Of a stretch of 64,000 nt of DNA, positions 35,809-64,000 are shown piece by piece. Numbering within the stretch: the stretch's first letter is position 1; the number at the start of each line of letters is the position of its first letter. This DNA is from Chloroflexota bacterium (GTDB lineage: Bacteria > Chloroflexota > Limnocylindria > P2-11E): positions 7,214 to 71,213 of the forward strand of contig VBFI01000049.1 in assembly GCA_005889275.1 (NCBI GenBank), given 5' to 3'. A model generated the notes under the pieces. That model did no database searches, had not been told where the DNA came from, and saw only the letters and a program-made list of their open reading frames with translations. Both the position numbers and the translations under genes were made by a program.

Positions 35809-36230
35809 GGTATCGGCGCGCGAAGGCTCGCGCGGTCGATGAGCTCGACGAGGACGCCACCCGATGCGCGAGGATGCAGGAAGGCCACGTCGCCCTCGGC
35901 TCCGCGGCGCGGCGCGCGGTCGATGAGCTCGACACCGTCGCGCGCCAGGCGGGCCAGCGTTCCGTTCAGGTCGTCCACGACGTAGCAGATGTGGTGGAGC
36001 GTCGGCCTCCCGCGCTCGGCGACGAAACGGCCCACGCCGCTTTCGGCGTCGAGCGGCTGCACGAGCTCGATGCGCTGGCCGCCGTCGCCGATGAAGATCA
36101 CGCGCACGCGCTGATCCGGGATCTCACGGATTTCGCCGCCGGCGAGGCCGAGCGTCTCGCGGAAGAACGGAAGCGCGTCCTCGATCCGCGGCACGGCGAT
36201 GGCGACGTGATGGATCGCGCCGAGCTTCAC
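35805..36230 (-). CDS. mce: Methylmalonyl-CoA epimerase (VOC/glyoxalase family)
   Basis: 141 aa, [28 protein letters not shown]...[13 protein letters not shown]...[14 protein letters not shown]. Confidence 0.75.
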
Positions 36231-46638: not shown

Positions 46639-47427
46639 CTAGAACCCCATCAGGTTGCGCGAGATCTTCGAATATCCGCGCTCGGCGGCCGCGAGATCGA
46701 GCGGCAGCGCGACGAGCTCGTCGACGAGCGGAACGGCCCGCGGGTCCTTGCGCAGGTCGATGGTGAGCAGATAGCGGCGGCAGATCTCACACGCGTCGAT
46801 CCGCACGTGCGGAAAGTGATCGACGTCCGAGAGGATCGGCATCTTCGCGCCGGCCGTCTCACCGCACGACGCGCAGGTCATACGGCTCAACACCCATTCA
46901 CCCGCGCAGCGCGAGCAGACCAAAGTTCTCTGGCCGGTGAGGAGCGCCTCGCCGGTGTCGGGAAAGAACGCGAGCTGCGGAAGCCCGCCGCAGCGCGGGC
47001 ACCGGCGGTCGTCGCTCTCGGCTGACCGGAGGGCCGCGGCCACCTCGGGAAGGGCCTCGAGGACCGGGGCGGCGGCCGCCCGCGCGAGGAAGGTGTCGGT
47101 CCCGCCCTGCTGCTCGCCGCGAAGCCACGCCTCCACGATGCCCTCGAGGTCGCCCTCGGCGAACCGCAGCAACACCGCCTCGCGGAGCGTTTCCGTCCCG
47201 GCCGCGACGGCGGCCTCCATGACACCGGGCAGGGCGACCCGCACGGCGTACGCGGCGATCTCCTCGGCGCCGGGGCCGTCCGCGAGCGCGCGCTCGAAGG
47301 CACGCTCCTGCGCGTCCACGACCGCGAGGTAGAGCCGCAGCGGCCCCTCGGCGAAGTCGTATCGCGCGCCGAGCTCGCGTGCGCGCTCGCGGCGCTCGGC
47401 ATGCACGGTCGAAGCGAGCAGCGCCAT
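46639..47427 (-). CDS. fdhE: Formate dehydrogenase accessory protein FdhE
   Basis: 262 aa, MALLASTVHAERRER..., four CxxC motifs (RCPRCGG, CSRCAGEW, CASCGE, CEICRRY). The ATG overlaps the fdhA stop. Confidence 0.85.
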   Translation of the reverse strand: MALLASTVHAERRERARELGARYDFAEGPLRLYLAVVDAQERAFERALADGPGAEEIAAYAVRVALPGVMEAAVAAGTETLREAVLLRFAEGDLEGIVEAWLRGEQQGGTDTFLARAAAAPVLEALPEVAAALRSAESDDRRCPRCGGLPQLAFFPDTGEALLTGQRTLVCSRCAGEWVLSRMTCASCGETAGAKMPILSDVDHFPHVRIDACEICRRYLLTIDLRKDPRAVPLVDELVALPLDLAAAERGYSKISRNLMGF

Positions 47428-50400
47428 CAGATCTTCTCGATGTTCACGAGGAACGCCTTGAACTCGGGCGTCCTCGCTCCGACATCGCCGACGAACGGCG
47501 TGAGCGCGTTCGCGAGCCAGTACTTCGAGCGTTCGGGATTCTGCTCGGCGGAGACGCCGATGAATCCCCAGTGGATGGGGATGCCGATGTGGTAGACGGT
47601 CTTGTTGCCGGCGAGGGTCATCGGCCCGAGACGCTTGGTGACGAGGGCGGCCACCTCGATCTTGCCGCGCTCGCTGAACACCCGCACGCGGTCGCCGTTC
47701 TTGATGCCTTTCTCGTTCGCCAGCTCCTCGGGGATCTCGACGAAGGCCTGCGGCTGCAACCCGACGAGCAGCGGGACGTGCTGCGTCACGTAGTGCTCGT
47801 GCTCGGTGAGGCGGTAGCTCGTCGCGACGTACGGGTACTTGTCCACCTTGCCGAAGCGGTTCGGCCTGCCGGCGGCCTGGTCGTAGAGGAACACGACCGG
47901 ATCCTCCGACTGGCTCGGGTGGAGCGGGTTCGCTATCGGCGCCTCGACCGGCTCGTAGTGCTCCGGGATCGGACCGTCGAGCATCGCGGAGGAGAAGAGC
48001 CTGCCGACCCCCTCCCCGTTCATGATGAAGGGGTTCCACGACGCGGGATCCTTGGGGTTCATCGTCGCCGGGTAGTCCGGCACGTCGCCGGTCCACGTCG
48101 TGCCGTTCCACTGGATGCCGGGGCGCTTGGGGTCCCACGGCTTGCCGTCGGAGTCGGCGGACGCGCGGTTGTACATGACCCGTCGGTTGAGCGGCCAGCT
48201 CCAAGCCCACATCGGGTAGAAGCCCATCCCCGTGGGATCGTTCTTCGCCGGATCCTGAATGCCGTTCCGGCGCTTGCTCAGATTTCCGTCCTCGGTGTAG
48301 CTCCCCGTATAGATCCAGTCACCGGCGGTCGTGGTGCCGTCGGCCTTGAGGTTCGCGAAGCTCGACATCTGCTTTCCGGTCGCGAGGTCCTTGCCGTTGA
48401 TCTCCTTGGCGATCTCGTCCAGCTCGGGCTTCTTGGGATCCTTGTACCAATCGGTGGTCATCGCGTTGATCGCGTCCGGAAACTTCCCGCCCTGCTGCTT
48501 GTAGAGGCTCTTCACTCGGTCGAAGAGGTCCGCGAAGATCCAGTGGTCGTGCTGCGCCTGGCCTTCGGGCGGGATCACCTGCTCCTTCCACTGCATCCAC
48601 CGGCCGCTGTTCACGAAGGAGCCATCCTTCTCGATCCAATGCGTCGTCGGGAGCATGAAGACCTCGGTCTGAATCTTCGAGGGGTCCATGTCCGGGCCGT
48701 GCCAGAACTCCGAGCTCGTCGTCGGCAGCGGATCCATGATCACGAGCCACTTGAGGTTGGAGAGCGCCTGCAGCACCTGGTTCACGTCCGGACCGATGCT
48801 CGTCGCGGTCATGCCGTTCAGGATCAGGCCCTCCATCTTGCCCTTGAGCGCCTGGTCGTAGATCGACATCCATGACGAGTTCGTCGCCGGCTTGGGGATG
48901 AAGTTGAAGGCGTACTCGTTGTCCTTCGTGGCCGCGGCACCGTACCAGCCCTTCAGCAAGCTGACCATGAAGTTGCGGTAGTTGAGGCCGAAGAAGTTCC
49001 ACGAGTTCGGGTCGCTCTTCACCGGCGCGCTCTGCCGGACGTAGTCGTCCAGGTTCTTCTGGCCGGGCGCGGGAATGCGGAGGTATCCCGGCAGGATCTC
49101 CCAGCTGATCGCGTGATCGGTGTTGCCCTGGATGTTCGCGTGGCCGCGCTCCGCGTTCATGCCGCCGCCGGGCCGGCCGATGTTCCCGAGGAGGAGCTGC
49201 AGCACCGCGCCCGAGCGGATGAGCTGCCCGCCGGTGGTGTGGTGCGTGAGGCCGACGGCGTACACGATCGTCATGACCTTGTCGGGCCTGCCCATCTCGC
49301 CGACGATCTTCGCGACCTGCAGGAACTGATCGGCGGGAATCCCGGTGATGCTCGCGACCATGTCCGGCGTGTAACGCGAGTAGTGCTTCTTGAGGAGCTG
49401 GAAGACCGAGCGCGGGTCCTGGAGGGTCATGTCGCGCTTGGCGAAGCCGGTCTGCGTCGTCGCCGGCCCCTCGACCTGTCCTCCCGCCTGCGCCGGCGGC
49501 GCGGTGAGCTCGTACGCCCACGTCGAGAGGTCGTAGGAGCGGGTCGCCGGGTTGTATCCGGAGAAGAGTCCGTCCTTGAAGTCGAAGCCCTCCTTCACGA
49601 TGAAGGAAGCGTTCGTGTAGTTCTTCACGTAGTCCTCGTGGTAGAGCGTGTTCTGGAGGACGTAGTTGATGAGCCCACCGAAGTAGGCGACGTCGGTCCC
49701 CGTGCGGATGCGCAGGTACATGTCCGACATCGCCGAGGTCCGCGTGTAGCGCGGATCCGCGTGGATGATCTTCGCGCCGCCGCCCGCCCCCGGGCCCTTC
49801 GTCGGGTCCAGCTTCGCCTTCACGAACCACTGGAACCCGACGGGGTGCGCTTCCGCCGGATTCGCCCCGTTGATGAGGATGACGTCGGCGTGCTTGATGT
49901 CGCGCCAGTGGTTCGTCATCGCTCCCCGTCCGAACGTGGCGGCCAAACTGACCACCGTTGGGCCGTGTCAGACCCGGGCTTGCTGCTCGATGTGCACGAC
50001 GCCGAGCGTCCGCATCAGCTTGGTCGCGAAGTAGCCCTCTTCGCTGCTGAACGCGGCGCCGCCGGCGAAGGCGACCCCCTCGGTGCGATTCACAGTGTTG
50101 CCGTTCGCGTCCTGCGCGACGAACGTGTTGTCGCGCGACGCCTTTAGGTTCTGGGCGATCTTGTCGAGCATGAAGTCCCAGCTCTTCTCTTCCCACTTCG
50201 CGCTGCCCGGGGCTCGGTAGAGCGGTTTCTCGACGCGGCGCGAGCTCGTCGCCAGCTGCATCGCCGTCGCGCCTTTCGGGCAAAGGCGTCCCTCGTTGAC
50301 CGGGCTGTCCGGGTCGCCTTCGATCTGCAGCAGCTGGGTCGTGCCGTTCGCCTGCTTCGTGTAGGCGATGAGCGCGCAGCCAACGGCGCAGTACGGGCAG

Positions 50401-50558
50401 ACCGAGTGGACTTCCTTCGCGCCCGCGATCCGCAGCTCGAGCGTGCGTCGCTTGACGCTTTTGAGGTCGAATCCAAGGGGGTTCGCGATGGGGACCGCCA
50501 GACCGGCTGCGCCGGCGGCACCGAGCTTCAGGAACTCACGTCGCGTGATTTCCGCCAT
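47427..50558 (-). CDS. fdhA: Formate dehydrogenase catalytic (molybdopterin) subunit, Tat-exported, selenocysteine-containing (in-frame TGA at 49970-49968)
   Basis: The track splits this into two ORFs (49968-50591 and 47427-49955) joined by one TGA. The junction reads ...HIEQQARV-U-HGPTVVSLAATFGRGAMTNHW..., matching E. coli FdnG ...QARV-U-HGPTVASLAPTFGRGAMTNHW. Tat motif TRREFLKLGAAGAAGLA. Start is probably MAEITRREFL (50558) or the GTG at 50591. Confidence 0.88.
49935..49967 (-). other. Candidate SECIS-like hairpin immediately 3' of the Sec UGA in fdhA
   Basis: mRNA: UGA CAC GGCCCAAC GGUGGUCA GUUUGGCC GCC; an 8-bp stem with one mismatch, starting 4 nt after the UGA. Confidence 0.3.
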
Positions 50559-50603
50559 CGGATCGGTCACTCGTTCTACTCCGATGCGCACACCCTCGCA
50601 AGC

Positions 50604-51167: not shown

Positions 51168-52093
51168 CCTCCACCGAGCGCGCCGCGAAGCGCGGCGCCC
51201 GCATCGTCGTACGCCTGGGCCGCCTCAGCAAGAAGATTCGGAAACGCCATGAAGCCGTGGAACATCCCGCGGTACCGCTTCGCCGTCGCCGAGATCCCGA
51301 CCTCGCGCAGCTTCGCCGCGTAGGCTTCGCCGTCGTCGCGGAGCGGATCGCACTCGGCGGTGATGACGAGGGCGGGCGGCATCCCGCGGAGGTCGGCCCG
51401 CAAGACCGACGCGTAGGGATCGTCGAGATCGGCGGGGGTGCGGATGTAGTGCTCGGCGTACCACTCCATGTCGGCCCTGGTGAGGCCGAAGCCGGTCGCG
51501 AACTCGTCGTGTGAGGCCGCGCCGTACCGCAGATCGGTCACCGGCACGGTGAGGAGCTGGAACGCGACCCTCGGTCCGCCTCGGTCGCGCGCGACGAGCG
51601 CCGCCGCGGCCGCGAGGTTCGCGCCCGCGCTCGAGCCGCCGACGGCGACGCGGGCAGCGTCGATCCCGAGCTCCGCCGCGTGATCGGCGACCCACCGCAC
51701 GGCGGCGTACGCATCCTCGACCGGCCCTGGGAACTTCGCCTCGGGAGCCAGGCGGTAGTCCACCGAGACGACGACGCACCGGCCGCGGTTCGCGAGCGCG
51801 CGGCACGGCTCGTCCGCCTCGTCGATCGATCCGATGACCCAGCCGCCGCCGTGGAAGTACACGAGGGCCGCGCCACTCGCGTTCTGCGGCCGGTAGATGC
51901 GCAGCGCGAGCGGGCCACCGGGGCCGGTGATGCTCTGAGCGATCACGCTCTCGACGGCCTCCGGTGCCGCCGCGAGCGGGACGGGGACGCCCCTCGCCTG
52001 GGCGGGGGTCATCGATGAATAGCGTGGCCGCGCGGCGATCTGCTCGACGATCGCGCGGACGACCGGGTGCAGGCGATCCTGGGTGACCGCCAT
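51164..52093 (-). CDS. Alpha/beta hydrolase, HSL-family esterase/lipase
   Basis: 309 aa, ...ALVYFHGGGWVIGSIDEAD...VAVGGSSAGANLAA... (HGGG oxyanion motif and GxSxG nucleophile elbow). Confidence 0.8.
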   Translation of the reverse strand: MAVTQDRLHPVVRAIVEQIAARPRYSSMTPAQARGVPVPLAAAPEAVESVIAQSITGPGGPLALRIYRPQNASGAALVYFHGGGWVIGSIDEADEPCRALANRGRCVVVSVDYRLAPEAKFPGPVEDAYAAVRWVADHAAELGIDAARVAVGGSSAGANLAAAAALVARDRGGPRVAFQLLTVPVTDLRYGAASHDEFATGFGLTRADMEWYAEHYIRTPADLDDPYASVLRADLRGMPPALVITAECDPLRDDGEAYAAKLREVGISATAKRYRGMFHGFMAFPNLLAEAAQAYDDAGAALRGALGGG

Positions 52094-52929
52094 CAGTGTC
52101 CGATCCGTTCGGGCGACGTGTACACGTTGAAGCGATCATCGCGCAGGAAGCCGACGAGCGTCATGCCGAAACGCTCGGCGGTGGCGACGGCGAGGCTCGA
52201 GGGCGCCCCCACGGCGGCGAGGATCGGGATGCCCGCGGCGACCGCCTTCTGCACGACCTCGTAGCCCGCGCGTCCGCTCACCGCCAGGACGGCGCCGCGC
52301 AGCGGGACGCGTCCGTCCAGGAGCGCGCGGCCGACCACCTTGTCGACCGCGTTGTGCCGTCCGATGTCCTCACGAAGGAGCTGAAGCTCGCCACGGTCGT
52401 CGAAGAGACCCGCCGCGTGCAGCCCGCCGGTGGTCTCGAAGAGGCGCTGCCGCTCGCGAAGCCGATCCGCGAGCGGCGGCAGGAGCGCCGCGTCCACGAG
52501 CGGGCCGGGCGCGAGCCGCGCGAAGTCGAGCGCGAGCGACTCCAGCGTCGTCGCGCCGCAAACCCCGCAGGCGGAGGTCGCGAGAAAGGATCGCTCGGGA
52601 CGCCGGCTCCCGTTCTCACGGACGTGGACGTCGACCTGGTTCGATTCGACGAGGTCGCCGCTGAGCGGCACCGCGGCCTCCCGCTCCTGGGCTTCGGCGC
52701 TGATGCGCACGCGCACGACGTCGTCGAGCGACCGAATCACCCGCTCCGCCCAGAGGAGACCGAGGGCGAGCTCGAGATCGTTTCCCGGGGTCCGCATCAC
52801 GATCGAAAGCGGCCGACCGTCCAGCGACAGCTGAAGCGGCTCCTCCGCCGCGACCTGGTCGCGGTCGTCGCGCCACTCGCCGGTTCGCCAGCGCGCGATG
52901 GTCACGGGCGGCGCCTGGGGCCGCGGCAT
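52093..52929 (-). CDS. fdhD: Formate dehydrogenase accessory sulfurtransferase FdhD
   Basis: 278 aa, ...SFLATSACGVCGATTLESL...EDIGRHNAVDKVVGRALLDG.... Confidence 0.85.
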   Translation of the reverse strand: MPRPQAPPVTIARWRTGEWRDDRDQVAAEEPLQLSLDGRPLSIVMRTPGNDLELALGLLWAERVIRSLDDVVRVRISAEAQEREAAVPLSGDLVESNQVDVHVRENGSRRPERSFLATSACGVCGATTLESLALDFARLAPGPLVDAALLPPLADRLRERQRLFETTGGLHAAGLFDDRGELQLLREDIGRHNAVDKVVGRALLDGRVPLRGAVLAVSGRAGYEVVQKAVAAGIPILAAVGAPSSLAVATAERFGMTLVGFLRDDRFNVYTSPERIGH

Positions 52930-53754: not shown

Positions 53755-54618
53755 CGCGAACCCGACGGCCATGACCGGCCGGGTGAGCTGACCCGACAGG
53801 ATCACCGCTCCGACGACGAGCTCGGTGAGACCGGCGAGCCAGATGAACGTCGGGTCACCGACGCCAAGCGGACGCAGCACGTTCAGGAAAGGGCTCTGAT
53901 CGAGGAGGGCCTGCGCGAGCGGCGGGTTGAGGAGCTTCTCGGTGAGCGCGTTGTACGCGATCCCGAAACCCATCGCGACGCGGAGGAGGGTCAGGGCGGC
54001 GGCCGGCGACCGATCGTGCTGGATCGCGCGATGCGCGTCACGCTGCGCGTCGAGCGAGACGCGACCTGGACCGGCGATGAACAGGAAGATCGCGATCCCG
54101 AGGATATGGACCTGCTCGAGGATGCTCTCGGGACTGAACGGCGCCATCGCCACCACGCCGAGCAGCGCGAGCGCCACGGCCGCGCCCCGTGTGAAAAGGC
54201 CGAGGAGCACCAGGATGCCGCACGCCGCCTCCACGCCGCCGATCGCGAGACCGAACGCGTCGCGCTCCACCGGGAGCGACGGGACGAAAAGCCAGCCGGC
54301 GAGGGCAGCGGCCAGCAGCGAGATCCCGAGCGCGGCTCGGAGCGCGAGCGGGCCGGTGCTCGCGAAGCGCTCGAGGGAGCGGATCGCGCGGGGCTCCGCG
54401 ACGTGGTGCTGGATCCAGTAGGCGACCGCCGCGGCGGCGAGGGCGATCGCGAACGCGGCCAGGACCGGCACGCTCAGGAGGAGCCCGTACTCGGTCGGAT
54501 GCGGCCGGGGATCGGTGAACCACTTCACGTGTGCGAGCGCGCCGAGGAGGATCACCCCGGCATCGCGGGCAGCCGGCGTGCCGGGCGCTAGCGGTACCAC
54601 TCGGGCGCGTGGCGCCAA
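53614..54618 (-). CDS. DoxX-family integral membrane protein (tandem DoxX-like halves)
   Basis: 334 aa, multiple TM helices, ...GLAIGGVEAACGILVLLGLFTRGAAVALALLGVV... and a second half ...TELVVGAVILSGQLTRPVMAVGFALFTVTLVVFG. Confidence 0.55.
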   Translation of the reverse strand: MAPRARVVPLAPGTPAARDAGVILLGALAHVKWFTDPRPHPTEYGLLLSVPVLAAFAIALAAAAVAYWIQHHVAEPRAIRSLERFASTGPLALRAALGISLLAAALAGWLFVPSLPVERDAFGLAIGGVEAACGILVLLGLFTRGAAVALALLGVVAMAPFSPESILEQVHILGIAIFLFIAGPGRVSLDAQRDAHRAIQHDRSPAAALTLLRVAMGFGIAYNALTEKLLNPPLAQALLDQSPFLNVLRPLGVGDPTFIWLAGLTELVVGAVILSGQLTRPVMAVGFALFTVTLVVFGLPELIGHLPFYGIMLTLFITPDADSWRVRRALGRAA

Positions 54619-55325
54619 CGCGCGAAGGCCGCCGCGTCATGGCTGACGAAGATCCGATCGAGGTCGTCGCCGACGAGCGACCTGATGAGCGCGAGCGACT
54701 CCTTCGCGGCGGTCTCGTCGGGTTGGCGAATCTCGCCACGCTCGAGGTTCTCGCGGGTGAAGGCGGCGTCGCCGCTCAGCACGACGCGGCCGGCTTCGGC
54801 GAGGTCGACGACGAGGGATTGGTGCCCGGGCGCGTGACCCGGCGTTGGCACGACCTCGACGCCGGGTGCGACCCGCGCGCGGCCTGTCGTCGGCAGGTAG
54901 GTGAGCTCGGGGATGTCCCAGTAGACGCCGGGGAAGTTCGGCTTGCCCTTCGCGAACGCGAGATGGTCGGCCTGAACGACGAACGTCGCCTTCGGGAAGG
55001 CGCCGTTGTTGCCAGCGTGGTCGAAATGGAGATGGCTGTTGACGACGACGCTCACGTCCTCTGGGCGCACGCCGAGCGTCGCGAGCCGCGCGACGATCGC
55101 GTCCTCGCGTGCCATCACCACCTTGAGGGCGCTCGGACCGAACGTCGCATCAGGGCGATCGATGTGTATTGGATGGAGCCCGGTGTCGAACAGGATGTTC
55201 CCCTCGGACGTGCGCAGGAGCGCCGACCAAACCGGCGCGTACGCCTTCTCGCTCGATCCAGCGGAAAGGAACGAGGAGGGGGCGATCTCGACTCCGCCCG
55301 TGCGGAAGATCGCGAGCTCGATCAC
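54588..55325 (-). CDS. MBL-fold metallo-hydrolase (lactonase-like)
   Basis: 245 aa, ...VVVNSHLHFDHAGNNGAF... (HxHxDH), ...PTPGHAPGHQSLVV.... Confidence 0.75.
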   Translation of the reverse strand: MIELAIFRTGGVEIAPSSFLSAGSSEKAYAPVWSALLRTSEGNILFDTGLHPIHIDRPDATFGPSALKVVMAREDAIVARLATLGVRPEDVSVVVNSHLHFDHAGNNGAFPKATFVVQADHLAFAKGKPNFPGVYWDIPELTYLPTTGRARVAPGVEVVPTPGHAPGHQSLVVDLAEAGRVVLSGDAAFTRENLERGEIRQPDETAAKESLALIRSLVGDDLDRIFVSHDAAAFARWRHAPEWYR

Positions 55326-56263
55326 CCGCGCAGCAGCTCCTCGACGGCCGCGTACGGATCGAGCGAGCGTTCCGCGACGCGAGCGACCGCGGCCGCAAGA
55401 CGCGATTCACCCACGCGTCCTGCGAGCTCGCGCAGCAGCGCCTCGCGGAGCAGCCCCTCGACCTCGACGCGCGCGGCCGCGCGGCGACGCCGGACCTGCT
55501 CGCCGCTTCCGGCGGACCAGGCGCGGTGCTTCTCGATCGCGTCGACGAGCTCGCGCGTTCCTTCGCCCGACCGCGCCGAGGTTCGGATGATCGGCGGCTT
55601 CCACGGGTGGTCCTTCGCGAGCGAGAGCATCTGCGCGAGATCGCGCACGGTCTCATCGGCGCCTGGCCGATCGGCCTTGTTCACGACGAGGACGTCGGCG
55701 ATCTCGAGGATCCCGGCCTTGATCGCTTGGATGTCGTCGCCCAGGCCTGGGACGGTCACCAGGCACACGGTGTCGGCGACGCCGATGACGTCGACCTCCT
55801 CCTGGCCCACGCCGACGGTCTCGACCAGGACGACGTCGGTGCCGAGCGCGTTCAGCACGTTGACCACTCGCGCGGTGGCTCGCGCGAGTCCGCCCGCGTG
55901 GCCGCGGCTCGCCATCGAACGGATGAAGATGCCCTCGTCGAGGAAGCGCTCGCGCATGCGGATGCGGTCGCCCAGGATCGCCCCGCCGCTGAAGGGGCTC
56001 GAGGGATCGACGGCGACGACCGCGACACGCGAGGAACGCTCGCGGTACGCGCCCGCGAGGTTGTTCACCAGGGTCGACTTCCCGCCGCCGGGCGGACCGG
56101 TCACCCCCACGACCTGGGCGCGGCCGGTGTCCGCGTAGAGCGTGCGCAGGATCTCGGCCGCGCCCGGGTCGTCGTTCTCCACGACGCTCACGAGCCGCGC
56201 GAGGGAACGCTTGTCGCCCGCGCGCGCGCGGGCGACGAGGTCACCGGTCGCGGTCGCCGCCAT
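55322..56263 (-). CDS. meaB: Methylmalonyl-CoA mutase-associated G-protein chaperone MeaB (ArgK)
   Basis: 313 aa, MAATATGDLVARARAGDKRSLARLVSVVEN...VVGVTGPPGGGKSTLVN...VLVVNKADR.... The start overlaps the acyl-CoA dehydrogenase stop. Confidence 0.85.
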   Translation of the reverse strand: MAATATGDLVARARAGDKRSLARLVSVVENDDPGAAEILRTLYADTGRAQVVGVTGPPGGGKSTLVNNLAGAYRERSSRVAVVAVDPSSPFSGGAILGDRIRMRERFLDEGIFIRSMASRGHAGGLARATARVVNVLNALGTDVVLVETVGVGQEEVDVIGVADTVCLVTVPGLGDDIQAIKAGILEIADVLVVNKADRPGADETVRDLAQMLSLAKDHPWKPPIIRTSARSGEGTRELVDAIEKHRAWSAGSGEQVRRRRAAARVEVEGLLREALLRELAGRVGESRLAAAVARVAERSLDPYAAVEELLRG

Positions 56264-57396
56264 CAGGACGCGCGCAGGAGATCGCGCGCGATGACGATGC
56301 GTTGGACTTCGCTCGTGCCCTCGCCGATCTCCATGAGGCGGGCGTCGCGGAGATGGCGCTCGACGGCGAAGTCGCGCAGGTATCCGTACCCGCCGAGGAC
56401 CTGCAGCGACGCGTCGGCAGCACGCGTCGCGGCCTCCGACGCGTAGAGCTTGGCCTTCGAGGCGGCATTCGAGAACGGCCGGCCCGCGTCGGCGAGGGCC
56501 GCCGCGCGGTGGACGAGGAGGCGCGCCGCGTCGAGCTCGGTCCGCGCCTTGGCGAGCTTCCACTGGATCATCTCGAACTCGGCGATCGGCCGCCCGAACT
56601 GCGTCCGCTCCTTCGCGTAGCGGGTCGCGATCTCCACCGAGGCACGCCCGAGCCCGGTCGCGAGCGCGGCGATCCCGATGCGTCCGCGATCGAGGACCTT
56701 CTTCACGTCGTCGAAGGCCGTGCCCTCGGCGCCGATGCGGTCGCCGGCCGGGACGCGGCACCCCGCGAGGATGAGCTGGGTCGTGTCCGACGCGTGCAGG
56801 CCCATCTTCTCCTCGCGCCGTCCCGCGCGGAACCCGGTCGTCCCGCGTGCGATGCCGAACGCCGTGAGCGTGCGCTCGCCGGTCGCCGCGAGGACCACGG
56901 CGAAGCCCGCGAGCCCGCCGTTGGTGATGAACTGCTTCGTTCCGCTGATCACGTAGGCGTCGCCGTCGCAGCGGGCGCGGCTCTGGACGGCGGCCGCGTC
57001 CGAGCCGGAGGATGGCTCGGTCAGGGCCCAGCAGCCGAGGTGGTCGCCCCGCGCGAGCGGGGGAAGCCAACGCTCCTTCTGCTCGTCGCTGGCGGCGACG
57101 AGGAGATGACCGATGCAGAGGGAGTTGTGTGCGGCGAGGGTGAGCGCGATCGAGCCATCGCCCGCGCCGAGCTCCTCCATCACGAGTGCGATCGAGACGC
57201 TGTCGAGCGCGGCGCCGCCGTACTCCGCGGGGACGGCGAGGCCCGTCAGGCCCAGCGTCGCGAGCTCCGGGAGGAGCGCGAGCGGGAACTCGCCGGCCTC
57301 GTTCCATGCGTCCGCGTTCGGGACGATCCGCGTGCGCACGAAATCGCGGACCGTGTCGCGAACGAGGAGCTGCTCCTCGCCGTAGCGAAAGTTCAC
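56263..57396 (-). CDS. Acyl-CoA dehydrogenase (paralog 2)
   Basis: 377 aa, ...ALTEPSSGSDAAAVQSRA...YASEAATRAADASLQVLGGYGY...GEGTSEVQRIVIARDLL. Confidence 0.85.
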   Translation of the reverse strand: MNFRYGEEQLLVRDTVRDFVRTRIVPNADAWNEAGEFPLALLPELATLGLTGLAVPAEYGGAALDSVSIALVMEELGAGDGSIALTLAAHNSLCIGHLLVAASDEQKERWLPPLARGDHLGCWALTEPSSGSDAAAVQSRARCDGDAYVISGTKQFITNGGLAGFAVVLAATGERTLTAFGIARGTTGFRAGRREEKMGLHASDTTQLILAGCRVPAGDRIGAEGTAFDDVKKVLDRGRIGIAALATGLGRASVEIATRYAKERTQFGRPIAEFEMIQWKLAKARTELDAARLLVHRAAALADAGRPFSNAASKAKLYASEAATRAADASLQVLGGYGYLRDFAVERHLRDARLMEIGEGTSEVQRIVIARDLLRAS

Positions 57397-57403
57397 TCGC
57401 CTG

Positions 57404-57793
57404 TCAGCGGGCCGCGGTCGGCTGCCCCGGATAGCCCTTCGCCTCCGGGATGTTCGGCGTGAGCTCGTCGACCATTCGCTGGTCTTCCTCGAGGACGGCG
57501 CGGTCCACGTCGTAGGCGGCCTGGCGCGTCTTCATGATCCGCTCGCGCTGGTCGGCCGGCAGCTGCACGAACGCCTTGATGCGCGCGGTGGTAAGCCGCT
57601 TGCGCTCCTCGCGATCCTCCATCCGCACGAGCTCGCGGAGCTGCGGTGTGAGCGCTCCGACACGGGCCGTGTCCACCGGGATCGCGGAGATCAGGCCGAA
57701 CCGGTGCTTCCAGAATTCGATCGCCTTCGCCTCGTCCTGTCCTCGCAGAGCCGCGAGTCCCGCGTCGACCGGTCGGTCGTCCTTCTTCGCCAT
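57404..57793 (-). CDS. Hypothetical protein
   Basis: MAKKDDRPVDAGLAALRGQDEAKAIEFWKHRFGLISAIPVDTARVGALTPQLRELVRMEDREERKRLTTARIKAFVQLPADQRERIMKTRQAAYDVDRAVLEEDQRMVDELTP...; no family recognized. Confidence 0.35.
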   Translation of the reverse strand: MAKKDDRPVDAGLAALRGQDEAKAIEFWKHRFGLISAIPVDTARVGALTPQLRELVRMEDREERKRLTTARIKAFVQLPADQRERIMKTRQAAYDVDRAVLEEDQRMVDELTPNIPEAKGYPGQPTAAR

Positions 57794-57890: not shown

Positions 57891-58310
57891 TCAGGCACCT
57901 GTGGCGATCCCACGCCTTTTCGGCACGGCGTCGCGCACGTACTTCGTGATCTCCTCGAGCGACGCGCCCGGCTGGAAGATGCGTTCTACGCCGATCTTCG
58001 CGAGGGCGGGGACATCCGCTTCCGGGATGATTCCCCCGCCGAAGAGCAGCACATCGTCCATGCCTTTCTCACGCATGAGCTCGGCGATGCGCGGGAAGAT
58101 GTAGTTGTGCGCCCCGGACAGGAGCGACACGCCGACCGCGTCGGCGTCCTCCTGCAACGCGGTCTCCACGACCTGCTCCGGGGTCTGATGGACGCCGGTG
58201 TAGATCACCTCCATGCCGGCGTCGCGCAGCGCGCGAGCCACCACCTTCACCCCGCGGTCGTGTCCGTCGAGGCCGGCCTTGGCCATGACCACGCGGATCG
58301 GGCGCTTCAC
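57891..58310 (-). CDS. Acyl-CoA mutase small subunit, B12 (cobalamin)-binding domain
   Basis: [70 protein letters not shown]...; the DxHxxG B12-binding motif is present in [11 protein letters not shown] start overlaps the upstream TGA (GTGA). Confidence 0.85.
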
Positions 58311-60046
58311 AGAACGATCCCGAGCTCCCCGAGGTGCTCCTCCCAGTGGAGGTACGTGTAGAAGGCGGCGATACCGAAGATGTTCGCGTCGGCGACCTGC
58401 CTCTCGGTGAGCGAGCCGATCGCCTCGCGAACGCGACGCGCCGAGGTGTCGAGCTCGTCGAGCATCGCCTCGGCTCCGACGAGCCGGTGTGCCTCGACGG
58501 CCCGGTCGTTCTCGGCCTGGATCGACGACGCGTCCCATTTCACAACGGTCCCAGCCGCGAGGTCGCGCACCGCGAGCTGCATCCAGTTCGCCGCGTGCGC
58601 ACAGAGATCGCGATACGTCCAGCCAGCGGGCGTCGTTTCGCCGAGGCCGGCGCGGCCACGCTCGCGGATCGCGCCGCGGAACGCGCGCCAGCCCTCGTCG
58701 AAGCGTGCGACCATCGCCGCCGCTGTCCGTGGCAGGGCCGCCTCGAGCTCCGCCCCGTGCTCGACGAAGTGGACGTAGGTCTCGCCCGCGACGAGCCGGA
58801 CGGCCATGAAGTGAACGTCGCGATCGGGCGGCAACGCGCCCAGGACGTCGAGGACGCCCTTGTAGGCCCGGTCGAGCCGCGCCACGACGTCGTGCGCGGA
58901 GCGGTCGCGCGCGAGATCGACTTCCCGCGCGTTCCGCTCGTCAACGTCGAGCACCCGCGCCCCGCGCGTGCCCAAAAGACGGTTCGGGAGCTCGGCCGGG
59001 ATCTCCTCCATCCAGAAGGCGAGGTGGCCGAGCATCGCTTTCAGGGTCCACCCCGCCGAGCTCGTGTTCGAAAGGGGCGCGAGGCCCAGCCGGCCGAGCG
59101 CGCGGCGCAGCGGGCGCCAGCCCTCGCGGACCCTCTCGAGGAGCTGCGCGGGCCGGGACGGAACGGCGGCGAATACCTCGTCAAAGTGCTCCGCGTAGTG
59201 CCCGTACGTGTTGCCGGCGACCACGGCGACGACCCAGTCCTCGTCAGCGTGGATCTGCTCGGTCGAGAGCATCTTGATCTCGGCGACGATCCGCTCGTGA
59301 GCCGCGTCGAGCTCGCGCATGACCTCGCGCCCGTCGCGACCCCGCGTGCGCGCGACCACGGCCGCGTTGAACTCGTCGGTGTCGTCGACCCCGGCATGGC
59401 GCTTCGCCTCACCGCTTTGGCGGAAAACATCGAGCCGGTCGGCCGTGCGTGCCTCCCACGCCGCCGCGTGCGCGGCGACGTCCTTGTACGTCCAGCCCGT
59501 CGCGGTCTTCTCCTCGAGCGTCGGGAGGCCGAGGGCCCCGAGCGCGAGCCGGAACGGGACCCAGTTCGTCCCCACGAGACCGAGGAGGTCGTCGCTGCCG
59601 CGGATGGCCGCGCCGATGTCCGCGTAATGGTCCGGGTAATGCCCGGTCGTGTTCCACTCCACGATCTGGGCGGCGAGACCCGGCGCGTCGTCCGGGAGCG
59701 CCTCGACGGTCTCAAGCAGCCGGTCGTGGGCGGCGCGCCACCGGGCGAACAGCTCGTCCGTCGTCCGGCCCTTCGCCTCCGCGGCCACGCGCGCGTTGAA
59801 CACATCGACCTCGTCGTAGAGCTTGGGATCTTCGCCGCGCTCGAGCACCGCCGCGACCCGTGGCGGCACGGTCTCCTCCCACGCGGCCAGGTGCGCGAGG
59901 TTCTCATTGAGCGACCAGCCCGTCGAAAGCGTTTCGCCGAAGCGGTCGGGCGGCAACGCCTCGAGCGCCGAGCGCAGCCGCCGATAGCCCTGGCCGATCT
60001 GCCGGCGGAGCGTGTCCTTAGAAATACCCCGGATCGTGGTACTCAC
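58307..60046 (-). CDS. Protein made of four tandem ClbS/DfsB-like (DUF1706, DinB/YfiT-like four-helix-bundle) domains
   Basis: 579 aa; four ~145-aa repeats, each with G-W-(S/T)-x-(K/N)-(D/E)-x-x-A-H-x-A-x-W ([56 protein letters not shown]) and a C-terminal His-rich helix ([53 protein letters not shown]). Confidence 0.7.
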
Positions 60047-61697
60047 CGAACACCTCCTTCAGCACGGCCACCTGCTCGCCGACGCTCGCGTACGCGCGGG
60101 CGCACTCGAGGAACCGCGGCATGAGCTCGCCCTTCGCCTTCGCGGCCCGCCGCAGCTCTTCGAGCGAGCTTCGCCAGCGTTCCTTGTCCCTCGTGCGGCG
60201 CGTCTCGGCGAGCCGTTCGTTCTGCTTCCGCTCGACGTCGGGATCGATCGCGAGGGTCGGGATGGGCACCTCCTCGTCGGTGGCGTACTTGTTGATCCCG
60301 ACGATCGTCTTCTCCCCTTCCTCGACCTGCTGCTGGAAGTGGAAGGCCGACTCGACGATCTCACGCTGCGGATAACCCTGCTCGACCGCTTCGACCATGC
60401 CGCCCCGCTTCTCGATCTCCGCGAGGTAACGCGCGAAACCGTCCTCCATCCGATCGGTGAGGTGCTCGAGGTAATACGAGCCCGCGAGCGGATCGATGGT
60501 GTCGGCGACCCCGGACTCGTGGGCGATGACCTGCTGCGTCCGGAGCGCGAGCGTCACCGCCTCCTTCGTGGGGAGCGCGTACGTCTCGTCGAGCGAGTTC
60601 GTGTGCAGCGACTGCGTGCCGCCGAGCACCGCGGCGAGGGCCTGCAAGGTCACGCGGACGACGTTGTTGTACGGCTGCTGCGCGGTGAGCGAGACTCCCG
60701 CGGTCTGCGCGTGGGTGCGCATGAGGAGCGCGCGCTCGTTCTTGGGGTGGTAGCGGCGCTCGATCTCCTTCGCCCAGATGCGCCTGGCCGCGCGGAGCTT
60801 GGCGACCTCCTCGAAGAAATCGTTGTGCACGTCGAAGAAGAACGACAGGTGCGGCACGAAGTCGTTGGGGTCGAGCCCGGCGTCGACGCCCCACTTCACG
60901 TATTCGAGCCCGTCGATGAGCGTAAAGGCGAGCTCCTGAACCGCGGTCGCCCCCGCCTCGCGGATGTGGTACCCGGAGATCGAGATGGTGTTCCACCTGG
61001 GTACCTCGCGTGAGCCGAAGCGGAACGTGTCGACCACGAGGCTCATCGCCGGCTTCACCGGCACGATCCACTCGCGCTGGGCGATGTACTCCTTCAAGGC
61101 GTCGTTCTGGATCGTCCCTCCCAGACGGTCGAGCGGGATCGCGCGCTTTTCGGCAGCGGCGAGGTACATCGCCCAGACGATCGAGGCCGGTCCGTTGATC
61201 GTCATCGACGTGGTGACCAGGTCGAGCGGTATCCGATCGAAGAGGATCTCCATATCGCGCAGCGTGTCGACGGCCACGCCCTCGCGCCCGACCTCGCCGC
61301 GCGACAGCGGATCGTCCGAGTCGCGGCCCATGAGCGTCGGCATGTCGAACGCCACGCTCAGTCCGTTCACGCCCTGCGAAAGCAGGTAGTGGAACCGCTC
61401 GTTGGAGTCCTCCGCCGAGCCGAAGCCGGCGAACTGCCGCATCGTCCAGAGGCGGCCCCGGTACATCGACGCCTGCACCCCGCGCGTGTACGGAAACTCC
61501 CCCGGGAAGCCGAGATCGCGCAGCGCATCGAAGCCGCCGAGGTCCTCCGCGGTGTAGACCGGCTCGATCGGATCGTCCGACAGCGTCGAGAAGCGTCGCC
61601 TGCGCTCGGGGTGCCGCTTGACGGCGGCCCCGTACACCTCCTCGAGCCAGCGTTGTTTGGCGGACTTCTGCGCCGGTGGCTCGACCTTCTGCTTCAT
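60018..61697 (-). CDS. Acyl-CoA mutase large (substrate-binding) subunit without a B12 domain, paralog 2 (ICM/MCM family)
   Basis: 559 aa from MKQKVEPPAQ...: [58 protein letters not shown].... The ATG overlaps the acyl-CoA dehydrogenase stop (ATGA). Confidence 0.85.
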   Translation of the reverse strand: MKQKVEPPAQKSAKQRWLEEVYGAAVKRHPERRRRFSTLSDDPIEPVYTAEDLGGFDALRDLGFPGEFPYTRGVQASMYRGRLWTMRQFAGFGSAEDSNERFHYLLSQGVNGLSVAFDMPTLMGRDSDDPLSRGEVGREGVAVDTLRDMEILFDRIPLDLVTTSMTINGPASIVWAMYLAAAEKRAIPLDRLGGTIQNDALKEYIAQREWIVPVKPAMSLVVDTFRFGSREVPRWNTISISGYHIREAGATAVQELAFTLIDGLEYVKWGVDAGLDPNDFVPHLSFFFDVHNDFFEEVAKLRAARRIWAKEIERRYHPKNERALLMRTHAQTAGVSLTAQQPYNNVVRVTLQALAAVLGGTQSLHTNSLDETYALPTKEAVTLALRTQQVIAHESGVADTIDPLAGSYYLEHLTDRMEDGFARYLAEIEKRGGMVEAVEQGYPQREIVESAFHFQQQVEEGEKTIVGINKYATDEEVPIPTLAIDPDVERKQNERLAETRRTRDKERWRSSLEELRRAAKAKGELMPRFLECARAYASVGEQVAVLKEVFGEYHDPGYF

Positions 61698-62842
61698 GCT
61701 GCGAGCAGCGAGCGCGCGATCACCAGGCGTTGGATCTCGCTCGTCCCTTCGTAGATCGTCGTCGCGCGGCCATCGCGGGCGTAGCGCTCGACGTCGTACT
61801 CGCGCATGTAGCCGTTGCCGCCGAGCGTCTGCACCGCCGCGTGCGTGGCCCGCTGCGCCATCTCGCTCGCGTAGAGCTTGGCCATCGCCGCTTCGCGCGT
61901 GAAGGGCCGGCCGCGATCGCGCAACCAGGCCGCCCGAAGCATGAGCAGGCGCGCGGCGTCGACCTGGGCCTCGAGCGCGGCGAGCGGGAAGCGCACGCCC
62001 TCGAAGTCGGCGATGGGGCGGCCAAACTGCCGGCGCTCCTTCGCGTACGAGCGCGCCCGGCGGAGCGCCGCCTTCGCGATCCCGATCGATTGCGCGGCGA
62101 TGTTGATCCGCCCCCCATCGAGTCCGGCCATGGCGAGGGCGAAGCCCTTTCCGACCTCGCCGAGCACCGCGTCGGCGCCGACGCGCGCGCCGTCGAGGAT
62201 GAGCGCGCTCGTGTCCGAGGCGCGCAGGCCGAGCTTTCGCTCCGCGGGACCCACGCTCACGCCTGGCGCGGCGAGCGGGACGAGGAAGGCGGTGATCCCT
62301 GCGGAGGCCTTCCGCGGATCGGGCGCGCCCACGCGCGCGAACACGATCGCGACCGGCGCGTAGCGCGCGTTGGTGATGAACTGCTTGCGGCCGTCGAGGA
62401 CCCAGCCGTCCCCGTCGCGGCGGGCAGCGGCGCGAAGCGACGCGGCGTCGCTTCCCGAGGTCGGCTCGCTCAGGGCGAACGCGCCGAGCCCGCTCCCGTC
62501 CGTGAGCTGAGGGAGCCAGCGGCGACGCTGCTCGACGGTGCCATTCCGCACGATCGTGCCGATGACGATCCCGCTGTTCACCGCGACGCCGACCGCGAGG
62601 GAGGCCCACGCGGCGGCAAGCTCCTCGAGGACGAGCGCGAACGCGACCGCCGACGCGCCGAGGCCGCCGTCAGCTTCCGGGACGCTCATCCGCAGCACCC
62701 CGAGCGGGCCGAGCTCGGCGATGACCTCACGCGGTATCGCGCCCGCCTTCTCGGCGGCCGAGATGCGCGCGCCAAGGCCGGCCGACCATGCGGCGACCGC
62801 CGCGGCCAGATCGCGCTCCGTCTCGCCGACAAAGCAGTTCAC
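61694..62842 (-). CDS. Acyl-CoA dehydrogenase (paralog 1)
   Basis: 382 aa from the GTG at 62842 (VNCFVGETERDLAAAVAAWSAGL...), overlapping the etfA TGA. ...ALSEPTSGSDAASLRAAARRDGDGWVLDGRKQFITNA...YEGTSEIQRLVIARSLL. Confidence 0.85.
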   Translation of the reverse strand: MNCFVGETERDLAAAVAAWSAGLGARISAAEKAGAIPREVIAELGPLGVLRMSVPEADGGLGASAVAFALVLEELAAAWASLAVGVAVNSGIVIGTIVRNGTVEQRRRWLPQLTDGSGLGAFALSEPTSGSDAASLRAAARRDGDGWVLDGRKQFITNARYAPVAIVFARVGAPDPRKASAGITAFLVPLAAPGVSVGPAERKLGLRASDTSALILDGARVGADAVLGEVGKGFALAMAGLDGGRINIAAQSIGIAKAALRRARSYAKERRQFGRPIADFEGVRFPLAALEAQVDAARLLMLRAAWLRDRGRPFTREAAMAKLYASEMAQRATHAAVQTLGGNGYMREYDVERYARDGRATTIYEGTSEIQRLVIARSLLAA

Positions 62843-63720
62843 GAGGCGGCCTTCACCTTCCTCACCGCCTCGGTGAACGCCGGGACGAACTCGAAGACAT
62901 CGGCGACGACGCCGTAGTCGGCGATCTTGAAGATGTCCGCGTCGGGATCCTTGTTCACCGCGACGATGACCTTGCTCGAGGTCATCCCGGCGAGGTGCTG
63001 GATCGCCCCCGAGATGCCGAGCGCGACATACAGGTCCGGGGTCACCGTCTTGCCGGTCTGCCCGACCTGCTCTTCGTTCGGCCGCCATCCCGCGTCGGTG
63101 ACCGCGCGCGACGCGCCGACCGCCCCGCCGAGGGCGTCGGCGAGTTGCTCGACGAGGTGCCAGTTCTCGGGCCCCCGCAGCCCTCGGCCGCCGGAGACCA
63201 CGACGCGTGCGTCGGCGAGCGAGACGCGCTTCCCGCTCGACGCCACCTCGGCGAACTTCACGAACTCGAGCTTCTCGGCGGCCGCGTCGGCGGGGATCTC
63301 CTCGACCGCCGGCGCGGCGGTCGCCTTGAGCGGCACCGCCCCGGGGCGGATCGTGACCACCGCGGGGAGCGGCACGCGGAGCCTCGCTCGGACCTTTCCG
63401 GCGTACATCGGACGCGTGACCTCGAGGTGATCGCCGCTCGTCTCGAGCGACGTCACGTCGGCCGCGTAGGCCCACGCTAGTCGCGCGGCGAGTCGCGCGC
63501 CGAGATCGCGGCCGTTCAACGTGGCCCCGAGGACCACGAGGTCCGCTTTGTCGGCCTCGACCCGCTTGGCGAGCGCGCTGGTGAAGGCGAGCGGCGAGTA
63601 GCGCTCGCCGGTGATCTCGACGACCGTCGCGGCTCCGAGATCCTTCGCTCTCGCGGCGGCCTCGAGCGACACCCGGCGGAGCTCGGCGCCCTTCCGTTCG
63701 GCGACGACGAGGATCTTCAC
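62839..63720 (-). CDS. etfA: Electron transfer flavoprotein alpha subunit
   Basis: 293 aa, MKILVVAERKGAELRRVSLEAAARAKDLG...GASRAVTDAGWRPNEEQVGQTGKTVTPDLYVALGISGAIQHLAGM.... Confidence 0.85.
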   Translation of the reverse strand: MKILVVAERKGAELRRVSLEAAARAKDLGAATVVEITGERYSPLAFTSALAKRVEADKADLVVLGATLNGRDLGARLAARLAWAYAADVTSLETSGDHLEVTRPMYAGKVRARLRVPLPAVVTIRPGAVPLKATAAPAVEEIPADAAAEKLEFVKFAEVASSGKRVSLADARVVVSGGRGLRGPENWHLVEQLADALGGAVGASRAVTDAGWRPNEEQVGQTGKTVTPDLYVALGISGAIQHLAGMTSSKVIVAVNKDPDADIFKIADYGVVADVFEFVPAFTEAVRKVKAAS

Positions 63721-64000
63721 AGGACCTTGGCCTCGTCGCGCAAGAGGGTCGCGAGCCGCTGGGCGGTCGTGGCCGCGTCGCCGTCCTTCAGGATCTTCCC
63801 GCCGCCGCGCGCCGGCGGCGGCTCCATCGAAAGGACCTCGAGCAGGGGCGCCGTCGCGTCGATCCCGAGCGAGCCGAAGGCGCGCTCGGGGATCTCCTTC
63901 TTCTTGGCCTTCATGATCCCGGGAAGCGACGGATACCGCGGCTCCTTCTCGCTCTTGTGCACGGTCGCGAGCGCGGGCAGCGCGGCCTTCCAGACCTCGT
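63717..64000 (-). CDS. etfB: Electron transfer flavoprotein beta subunit, C-terminal part only (5' end outside window)
   Basis: ...EPRYPSLPGIMKAKKKEIPERAFGSLGIDATAPLLEVLSMEPPPAR...; overlaps the etfA start. Confidence 0.7.
   Translation of the reverse strand, partial: EVWKAALPALATVHKSEKEPRYPSLPGIMKAKKKEIPERAFGSLGIDATAPLLEVLSMEPPPARGGGKILKDGDAATTAQRLATLLRDEAKVL

Follow-up and report, generated by a model that had tools for sequence, protein, structure and literature searches.

Members of the DinB/YfiT-like superfamily (DinB_2, PF12867), such as the YfiT/BstA bacillithiol S-transferases, mycothiol S-transferase and TTHA0303, are known as single domains of ~150-170 amino acids (aa), most of which form homodimers (PMC10693628), and in the enzymes of this superfamily that have been characterised a metal mostly serves to activate a thiol (PMC10693628). 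Members of the ClbS/DfsB family (DUF1706, PF08020; ClbS 5cof/6anr, DfsB 5civ, yeast IRC4 5cog) are largely monomeric single domains (PMC10693628). The proteins known to assist adenosylcobalamin (AdoCbl)-dependent mutases are MeaB/MMAA, adenosyltransferase and, for glutamate mutase, MutL/GlmL (PMC4682846; PMC9974510; PMC10356863); MeaB binds the B12 domain directly (PMC9974510), and MutL/GlmL, a chaperone that reactivates glutamate mutase, is encoded among the co-localised genes of that enzyme (PMC4682846). The gene analysed here, located in a stretch of 64,000 nucleotides (nt) from a Chloroflexota bacterium (contig VBFI01000049.1, positions 7,214 to 71,213; the whole stretch is called the window), encodes DinBx4, a single chain in which four DinB-type domains are fused, and lies in the operon of a split AdoCbl-dependent acyl-CoA mutase, a setting in which no known member of the DinB superfamily has been reported. 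Searches of the full-text literature found neither a paper tying DinB, ClbS or DUF1706 proteins to B12-dependent mutases nor an account of this operon in Limnocylindria. The domains belong to a known superfamily; neither their tandem arrangement nor their genomic role seems to have been described. The original prediction, made from the DNA letters alone, had likewise named no equivalent, and none is found in the searchable literature.

The gene and its repeats are placed as follows.

58307..60046, minus strand: four-repeat DinB gene, 579 codons and 579 aa, with a GTG start at 60046 and a TGA stop at 58307-58309 (open reading frame, ORF, and translation)
59597..60046, minus strand: repeat 1, aa 1-150; putative ligands H52, H136 and H140; MDMPI_N 2.8e-10, DinB_2 2.4e-9, DUF1706 1.9e-6
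59162..59596, minus strand: repeat 2, aa 151-295; putative ligands H193, H283 and H287; MDMPI_N 3.3e-4, DUF1706 1.2e-3, both below threshold when the repeat is scanned alone
58733..59161, minus strand: repeat 3, aa 296-438; putative ligands H341, H426 and H430; MDMPI_N 6.5e-9, no DUF1706 match
58310..58732, minus strand: repeat 4, aa 439-579; putative ligands H484, H567 and H571; MDMPI_N 5.2e-9, no DUF1706 match

The predicted division of the 579-aa ORF into four repeats of ~145 aa is borne out by their pairwise identity of 29-35%, with BLASTP E values between 1e-5 and 1e-18 that are far beyond chance. At the DNA level, recurrence within the gene is limited to segments of at most 51 nt with 65-78% identity, situated at motif-coding stretches; since these segments are so short and so diverged, the repeats must be old, and represent neither a recent duplication nor an assembly repeat that was collapsed or expanded. 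An assembly artefact or recent tandem duplication was rejected on this basis, and also on the existence of full-length homologues elsewhere. The third-codon-position G+C content (GC3) of the ORF, 0.90, equals that of the neighbouring genes in a window of ~70% G+C, and an overlapping plus-strand ORF at 58334..60124 was discarded as a real gene upon failing a codon-composition filter.

The gene is a constant member of the mutase operon. In a genome scan that took one genome per species, 42 loci of the type seen in the window (lineage 1) were found; the gene for the B12-binding small subunit follows the DinB gene directly in 41 of them, and the gene for the mutase large subunit directly precedes it in all 35 loci for which upstream sequence exists, which answers in the positive the question of recurrence beside mutase genes that the original prediction had raised. 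The identical operon, gene for gene, is present on three long contigs. A search of 5.8 billion proteins yielded 418 homologues; among the 120 of them listed, lengths run from 469 to 595 aa (most being ~577 aa) and identities from 55 to 69%, and those that bear names are called hypothetical, DinB family, MDMPI-like or ClbS/DfsB family, from Chloroflexota or Candidatus Limnocylindria. All 42 loci stem from metagenome-assembled genomes (MAGs) of Chloroflexota/Limnocylindria, with the exception of two contigs labelled as other phyla (L029 and L046, deposited as 'Candidatus Acidiferrales' and 'Candidatus Saccharimonadales' MAGs); given that their operon genes are 75-87% identical to those of Limnocylindria type, these two labels are probably binning errors. 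The family to which DinBx4 belongs is confined to the class Candidatus Limnocylindria, uncultured Chloroflexota of soil.

The family assignment of the repeats differs from the one first proposed. Pfam puts the whole protein in the DinB clan, where MDMPI_N (E 2.9e-28, 99.7 bits against a cutoff of 24.2) and DinB_2 (E 2.3e-16, 60.8 bits, cutoff 24.8) each match in four stretches, and DUF1706 (E 1.5e-12, 48.2 bits, cutoff 24.2) in only two; TIGR03083 of NCBIfam also matches in four stretches (86.8 bits, cutoff 50). When the repeats are scanned singly, MDMPI_N is the top-scoring family in each (41.5, 21.8, 37.0 and 37.4 bits, so that repeat 2 alone falls just under the cutoff of 24.2), and DinB_2, the profile of the superfamily itself, equally matches all four. 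The expectation that the repeats would match both DUF1706 and the DinB/MDMPI profiles is thus upheld in its second half, whereas for DUF1706 it holds only in repeat 1 taken alone (28.3 bits, above the cutoff of 24.2), repeat 2 failing with 19.2 bits and repeats 3 and 4 giving no match. Because the metal triad described below is kept, and because MDMPI_N and DinB_2 outscore DUF1706, the ClbS/DfsB label under which the repeats had been filed, and which the fold ranking alone favours, is withdrawn: the repeats are metal-triad DinB/MDMPI_N-type domains, with a backbone nearest to ClbS/DfsB.

The N-terminal domain of mycothiol-dependent maleylpyruvate isomerase, MDMPI (MDMPI_N, PF11716 / TIGR03083; Cgl3021, PDB 2nsf/2nsg), is hence the best family by sequence, its H52 corresponding to the invariant first His of the repeats. 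The metal ligands of MDMPI are reportedly, after work by Wang and colleagues in 2007, H52, E144 and H148, so that the third ligand is a Glu in MDMPI and a His here. The C-terminal domain of MDMPI is absent from DinBx4, no MDMPI_C match being found in a Pfam scan at E <= 1, and TIGR03084 reaches 36 bits where its cutoff is 248. Mycothiol is not known in Chloroflexota, and no genes of the gentisate/maleylpyruvate pathway were found beside the DinB gene or among the scanned ORFs of the window.

Each repeat displays the pattern G-W-x7-H-x3-W, followed by a conserved Asn and by H-x3-H in the last helix. The predicted G-W...H...W helix and the C-terminal His-rich helix are thus found in all four repeats, and they are kept across 51 full-length homologues, in which the His residues of the triad, as in 29 single domains, are invariant or nearly so; 18-24 columns per repeat are invariant among the 51, every triad His included. 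All four repeats show clear purifying selection, and it falls on the same motif positions in each. While a full-length profile yielded nothing meaningful against the sequences of the PDB, a single-domain profile did match TTHA0303 (1e-6), YfiT (1.5e-4), MDMPI (1.6e-3) and the H52A mutant of MDMPI (0.15). The first triad His is placed on the zinc-ligand position H52 of MDMPI by the drop in score, which is 21.8 bits with MDMPI and 15.3 bits with the H52A mutant chain, and it also aligns with the corresponding His of YfiT. The same His...HxxxH triad occupies the metal-ligand positions of the superfamily, and each repeat probably binds a metal ion.

The AlphaFold model of the 579-aa protein (mean predicted local distance difference test, pLDDT, 90.2; predicted template-modelling score, pTM, 0.80) is all-helical, and the pTM value suggests a defined packing between the modelled repeats. 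In each of the predicted bundles, which have the four-helix DinB fold, the triad His residues lie in the first long helix and in the last one. The ranking of known folds against the model is headed by ClbS 5cof (17.5) and DfsB 5civ (16.2), followed by MDMPI 2nsg (15.5), TTHA0303 (13.2), YfiT (12.9), EgtB (12.5), mycothiol S-transferase (10.5) and BstA (9.1); Foldseek returns the same order, and the predicted structure does resemble the ClbS/DfsB crystal structures. The notion of a DinB-like, possibly metal-binding scaffold is supported, each repeat being a DinB-like four-helix-bundle module that probably holds a metal.

It may be asked whether DinBx4 could act as ClbS or DfsB do, that is, as a genotoxin-inactivating hydrolase, a DNA protector or a lethal-peptide precursor. 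The whole protein and repeat 1 do pass the Pfam threshold of DUF1706, and one NCBI record titles a homologue 'ClbS/DfsB family four-helix bundle protein'; such a function is nevertheless disfavoured and very improbable. In a weak profile alignment, ClbS (5cof) carries a Tyr at the position of the family's invariant His, and no HxxxH; repeats 3 and 4 have no DUF1706 match; and no toxin or polyketide context was found in the operon or among the scanned ORFs of the window. ClbS and DfsB, both DUF1706 proteins, lack the DinB superfamily's motif for binding metal (PMC10693628), a motif whose triad is invariant here, and the single ~170-aa domain of that family belongs to a toxin-resistance or precursor context unrelated to that of a 579-aa, four-domain protein in a mutase operon.

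A second lineage of relatives, first met through the two-repeat protein P0161 and the more distant P0273, shows which of the neighbours are shared. Its gene order, repeated on three long contigs, is folE, a DinB gene of one or two domains, the B12 small subunit, MeaB, a 3-hydroxyacyl-CoA dehydrogenase (HCDH) and an acyl-CoA dehydrogenase. The P0273 family has 194 matches, some named Candidatus Limnocylindrales and mostly with one DinB domain, and a metagenome scan with a narrow domain alignment added 80 loci, namely 75 analysable as lineage 2, 4 of lineage 1 and 1 duplicate. Fifty-seven lineage-2 loci have at least 300 nt of downstream sequence: the B12 gene lies within 300 nt in 37 of these and 0.5-1.6 kb away, behind an inserted gene, in 10, giving 47/57 within 1.6 kb, and the other 10 show no B12 gene in the downstream sequence available. 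Identity between the lineages amounts to 56-69% for the B12 subunits, 42-58% for MeaB and ~26-40% for the DinB domains. What both lineages have in common is the string of DinB gene, B12 small subunit and MeaB, and not the large subunit, which is not adjacent in lineage 2; the shared neighbour is therefore the B12 subunit/MeaB module, and the link to the large subunit that the original prediction had drawn was overstated.

Several features of lineage-2 loci may be recorded beside this comparison. In P0273, P0279, P0294 and P0319 a Pro/Glu/Ala-rich low-complexity extension stands N-terminal to the single DinB domain; such extensions range from ~20 aa (P0343, P0382) to ~170 aa in the longest case and vary between close relatives. 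At L090:433-1569 and L099:843-1973 an O-methyltransferase-like gene, judged from its translation, is found between the DinB and B12 genes. At L050:7910-9334, on a 2.9-Mb contig, a single 474-aa product is called that comprises both the B12-binding domain and MeaB, and this is either a natural fusion of small subunit and chaperone, as in IcmF, or a frameshift.

In 64 of 65 lineage-2 loci the gene directly upstream of the DinB gene is folE, which encodes GTP cyclohydrolase I (for example L051:6621-7525), and the stop of the one often overlaps the start of the other. Four lineage-1 loci (L019, L029, L035 and L039) have a folE homologue as well, 38-40% identical and situated 2-3 kb beyond MeaB on the opposite strand. 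FolE requires Zn, and when Zn is scarce it is supported by G3E GTPases of the COG0523 branch; a chain with one to four three-His sites would suit a metal buffer, so that the DinB protein could be a metal-handling partner of FolE and/or a G3E GTPase, buffering or delivering a divalent metal such as Zn, with only a secondary link to the mutase. This is quite unlikely: the window contains no folE and most lineage-1 loci have none adjacent, the GTPase of the operon is a bona fide MeaB above its equivalog cutoff and not a COG0523 protein, and adjacency to folE, being seen in one lineage only, may be plain inheritance.

The reading preferred here, held tentatively and at somewhat less than an even chance, is that the DinB protein binds metal and serves, as an accessory factor peculiar to this lineage, the cofactor module of the split AdoCbl-dependent acyl-CoA mutase; it is drawn from the gene neighbours only. 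The protein would act with or on the small subunit/MeaB module, loading, protecting or repairing cobalamin, and would not be a step of the carbon pathway; its tandem repeats could be covalently linked equivalents of DinB homodimers. As characterised DinB enzymes mostly use their metal to activate a thiol, the likeliest chemistry would be metal- and thiol-dependent. In support of an accessory role, the pairing with the B12 subunit persists across two strongly diverged lineages, and MutL/GlmL sets a precedent for B12 mutases having such a helper protein. The gene mutL sits between mutS and mutE, and DinBx4 resembles the accessory proteins of AdoCbl mutases in being encoded within the mutase gene string, by the B12-binding subunit, and in co-occurring with MeaB in both lineages. 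It differs from them in that Pfam, NCBIfam and fold searches reveal no relation in sequence or fold to MeaB, PduO-type adenosyltransferase or MutL/GlmL: DinBx4 has no P-loop, no signature of the PduO helical-bundle trimer and no ASKHA fold, and no nucleotide-binding motif is evident.

A number of observations weigh against this assignment. Split mutases in other settings are not known to need a protein of this kind. The most constant neighbour of the DinB gene in lineage 2 is folE, not the B12 gene; L105 and L123 have genuinely different downstream genes with no B12 gene, and at L090 and L099 other genes separate the two. Single-domain genes occur outside the operons, in the two cases where their context is visible, L045 having no mutase genes and L053 lying beside an EamA transporter. 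The start/stop overlaps by which the gene is joined to its neighbours are common to most genes of the operon, and hence not specific to it. Finally, the DinB gene is the fastest-evolving of the operon in lineage 1, with a median identity to the window of 55%, and rapid evolution combined with an unstable number of domains is unusual for an obligate subunit.

A more specific version of the accessory role, unlikely as stated, would make the DinB modules a cobalamin-processing or cobalamin-holding protein, in which either a metal-activated thiol strips or exchanges the upper ligand of corrinoids that are incoming or damaged, or the His-lined bundles park cob(II)alamin, the cofactor then being handed over to the small subunit under the control of MeaB. 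In the upper-ligand form, CblC/MMACHC would be the functional analogue, and the chemistry would be that of a thiolate acting on carbon, as in the DinB S-transferases. Were this true, the protein would represent a third player in the maturation of bacterial B12 mutases, possibly serving isobutyryl-CoA mutase (ICM)- and methylmalonyl-CoA mutase (MCM)-type enzymes through one small subunit.

The main rival to the accessory role is an enzymatic one. A complete putative active site, consisting of triad, Asn and Trp, is present in every repeat, and acyl-CoA and hydroxyacyl-CoA dehydrogenase genes surround the DinB gene in the two lineages; the protein might therefore be a DinB-type metal-/thiol-dependent transferase, isomerase or hydrolase that has several active sites on one chain, detoxifies reactive products of the acyl-CoA dehydrogenases, for example the electrophilic enoyl-CoA esters methacrylyl-, crotonyl- or acryloyl-CoA, and is no partner of the mutase. 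A variable number of independent catalytic modules suits an enzyme better than a subunit of fixed stoichiometry, and such a role matches the known chemistry of the superfamily (PMC10693628). This alternative is possible, if doubtful, in that the fixed place of the gene is before the B12 small subunit and not by any particular dehydrogenase, its product evolves much faster than the enzymes of the operon, biosynthesis genes for low-molecular-weight thiols were not found in the scanned ORFs of the window, and the C-terminal domain of MDMPI is absent.

Rates of change within the operon are uneven. For lineage 1, median identities to the window are 86% for the B12 subunit, 81% for the large subunit, 78% for etfA, 77% for MeaB, 71-77% for the two dehydrogenases and 63% for a 129-aa protein described below; within DinBx4, repeat 2 is the most conserved (median 68%) and repeat 1 the least (median 51%). 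Repeat number varies as well. Most loci encode four repeats, L034 and L037 three, L041, L042 and L043 two, and L045 one, and an exhaustive search of representative sequences gave 710 relatives at E <= 1e-3 (44 at E <= 1e-30) with lengths peaking near 150, 295, 445 and 579 aa. Multi-repeat versions thus exist elsewhere, as had been suspected, in two-, three- and four-repeat forms. Many of the two- and three-repeat forms begin with M-S-T-x-x-P-x-T-S, the segment that overlaps the stop region of the mutase gene. Other tandem DinB proteins (the 474-aa three-repeat P0201, P0212 and P0229, and the two-repeat P0222) demonstrate that head-to-tail fusion is not unique to this family, which with its one to four fused domains departs from the single-domain members known so far; they are only 27-30% identical, and lack the N-terminal segment overlapping the mutase gene.

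A neighbour-joining tree of 53 individual domains, which carries no bootstrap values and is to be taken as indicative, resolves four orthologous repeat classes (R1-R4). Repeat 2 of the window protein is joined by the single domains of lineage 2 and by the first repeat of the two- and three-repeat forms, repeat 4 by the final repeat of most forms and repeat 3 by the middle repeats, while R1, sister to the R3 class, occurs only in four-repeat proteins. The architectures found (R2; R2+R4; R2+R3; R3+R4; R2+R3+R4; R1+R2+R3+R4) indicate that copy number was gained stepwise and in situ, with some loss, along the path R2 -> R2+R4 -> R2+R3+R4 -> R1+R2+R3+R4. Because copy number varies from 1 to 4, a fixed four-fold assembly, such as the pseudo-tetramer whose packing the original prediction had asked about, is not essential to the family. 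The one-, two-, three- and four-domain forms offer a natural series for the study of how homo-oligomers turn into tandem repeats.

The highest divergence in the operon and the unstable domain count also suit a syntenic passenger, that is, a generic DinB stress protein which was captured in an ancestor of the Limnocylindria and kept by operon inertia, with nothing functional to connect it to the mutase. The restriction to one class and the single-domain relatives L045 and L053 in unrelated contexts are in line with this view, as is the fact that soil bacteria have many DinB-superfamily genes of diffuse function (PMC10693628). It is judged unlikely, since adjacency to the B12 subunit outlasts differing flanks and protein identities of 26-60% across the lineages, the reading frame of the gene overlaps those of the two subunits of a single enzyme between which it is inserted, and purifying selection acts on the same motif positions in all four repeats. 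Should the protein be no more than a passenger or an enzyme of detoxification, the result would be a modest gain in annotation for an abundant class of soil Chloroflexota. With regard to the preferred accessory role, the accepted requirements for maturing and repairing B12 mutases are a G-protein (MeaB/MMAA) and an adenosyltransferase, and a conserved third protein encoded directly upstream of the cofactor-binding subunit would be a concrete and testable candidate for an unrecognised step, be it cofactor tailoring, protection from radical or electrophile damage, or subunit assembly. The DinB superfamily, large and mostly uncharacterised, gains here a rare and sharply defined genomic context.

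The junction sequences confirm that the ORF lies between the genes of the large and the small subunit and overlaps both of them. The stop of the large-subunit gene falls 29 nt into the DinB ORF, and the TGA stop of the latter overlaps the GTG start of the B12 small-subunit gene as GTGA, in agreement with the original prediction. The ribosome-binding site is read from the sequence.

60053..60059, minus strand: Shine-Dalgarno sequence AAGGAGG, 6 nt before the GTG start of the DinB gene and within the 3' end of the mutase large-subunit gene

It had further been claimed that expression is stoichiometric with the mutase; because genes overlap or almost touch at most junctions of the operon, the overlaps flanking the DinB gene give no special evidence for such coupling, and this claim is dropped.

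The predicted contiguous chain of etfB, etfA, acyl-CoA dehydrogenase, large subunit, DinBx4 and B12 subunit, with MeaB nearby, is present in the window. Its members, in order of transcription, are the following.

63717..64000, minus strand: etfB (electron-transfer flavoprotein, ETF, beta subunit), 3' part only, running off the window; 81% identical to the C-terminus of the ETF-beta of L001
62839..63720, minus strand: etfA (ETF alpha), from the family scan
61694..62842, minus strand: acyl-CoA dehydrogenase, directly upstream of the mutase, from the family scan
60018..61697, minus strand: acyl-CoA mutase large (substrate-binding) subunit, 559 aa, ICM-like; TIGR00641 1.8e-219
57891..58310, minus strand: B12-binding small subunit, 139 aa; TIGR00640 2.4e-47
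57404..57793, minus strand: conserved 129-aa protein with no detectable family, found at the same position in lineage-1 loci
56263..57396, minus strand: acyl-CoA dehydrogenase, second copy of the operon, from the family scan
55322..56263, minus strand: MeaB, G-protein chaperone of AdoCbl mutases; TIGR00750 3.3e-103, above the equivalog cutoff
54588..55325, minus strand: metallo-beta-lactamase (MBL)-fold lactonase-like protein, at the end of the gene string

The solved structure closest to the large subunit is HcmA 4r3u (E 2.8e-162). At the three positions that distinguish the mutases, the large subunit reads RQFAGF, SVAFD and KEYIAQ, and by alignment Phe and Gln are as in ICM, Ile and Asp marking 2-hydroxyisobutyryl-CoA mutase (HCM), and Tyr and Arg marking MCM. 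Classification as an HCM, to which the best PDB match belongs, was rejected, in that the HCM-type Ile and Asp positions read Phe and Ala. A paralogous large subunit is found elsewhere in the window.

36227-37897, minus strand: second mutase large subunit with the MCM signature (RQYAGF, Arg), as aligned with the ICM-like paralogue

This MCM-type gene belongs to a propionyl-CoA carboxylase/epimerase cluster that includes no small subunit for it, and tblastn detects only a single B12-binding small-subunit gene across the 64 kb; the ICM-type and MCM-type enzymes may share this subunit, or a second copy may exist elsewhere. The ORFs scanned in other parts of the window include neither an adenosyltransferase nor a further B12 gene, and Rfam detects no cobalamin riboswitch or other RNA family in it. 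The helical-looking 129-aa protein, which has no match in Pfam, NCBIfam or the PDB, is 46-83% identical among 35 lineage-1 loci and absent from lineage 2, and may be another uncharacterised component of the operon. A gene of the penicillin-amidase family (37901-40270, minus strand; Pfam 1.1e-217) separates the MCM-type large subunit from the biotin-carboxyl-carrier/carboxylase genes, an odd insertion for a propionate-pathway cluster.

Among the other genes of the window, a formate-dehydrogenase-like molybdoenzyme (47427-50591, minus strand) is divided into two ORFs by a single in-frame TGA at 49968-49970, in the context ...EQQARV*HGPTVVSLAATFGRGAMTNHW..., which we take to be the classical selenocysteine (Sec) position of FdnG/FdoG-type enzymes; the two ORFs are probably one Sec-containing gene. 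An FdhD gene (52093-52929) and a 4Fe-4S subunit (45792-46634) are located near it. Positions 1-22000 are mostly occupied by paralogous sets of oligopeptide/dipeptide ABC transporter genes, with five family-5 solute-binding proteins, permeases and ATPases.

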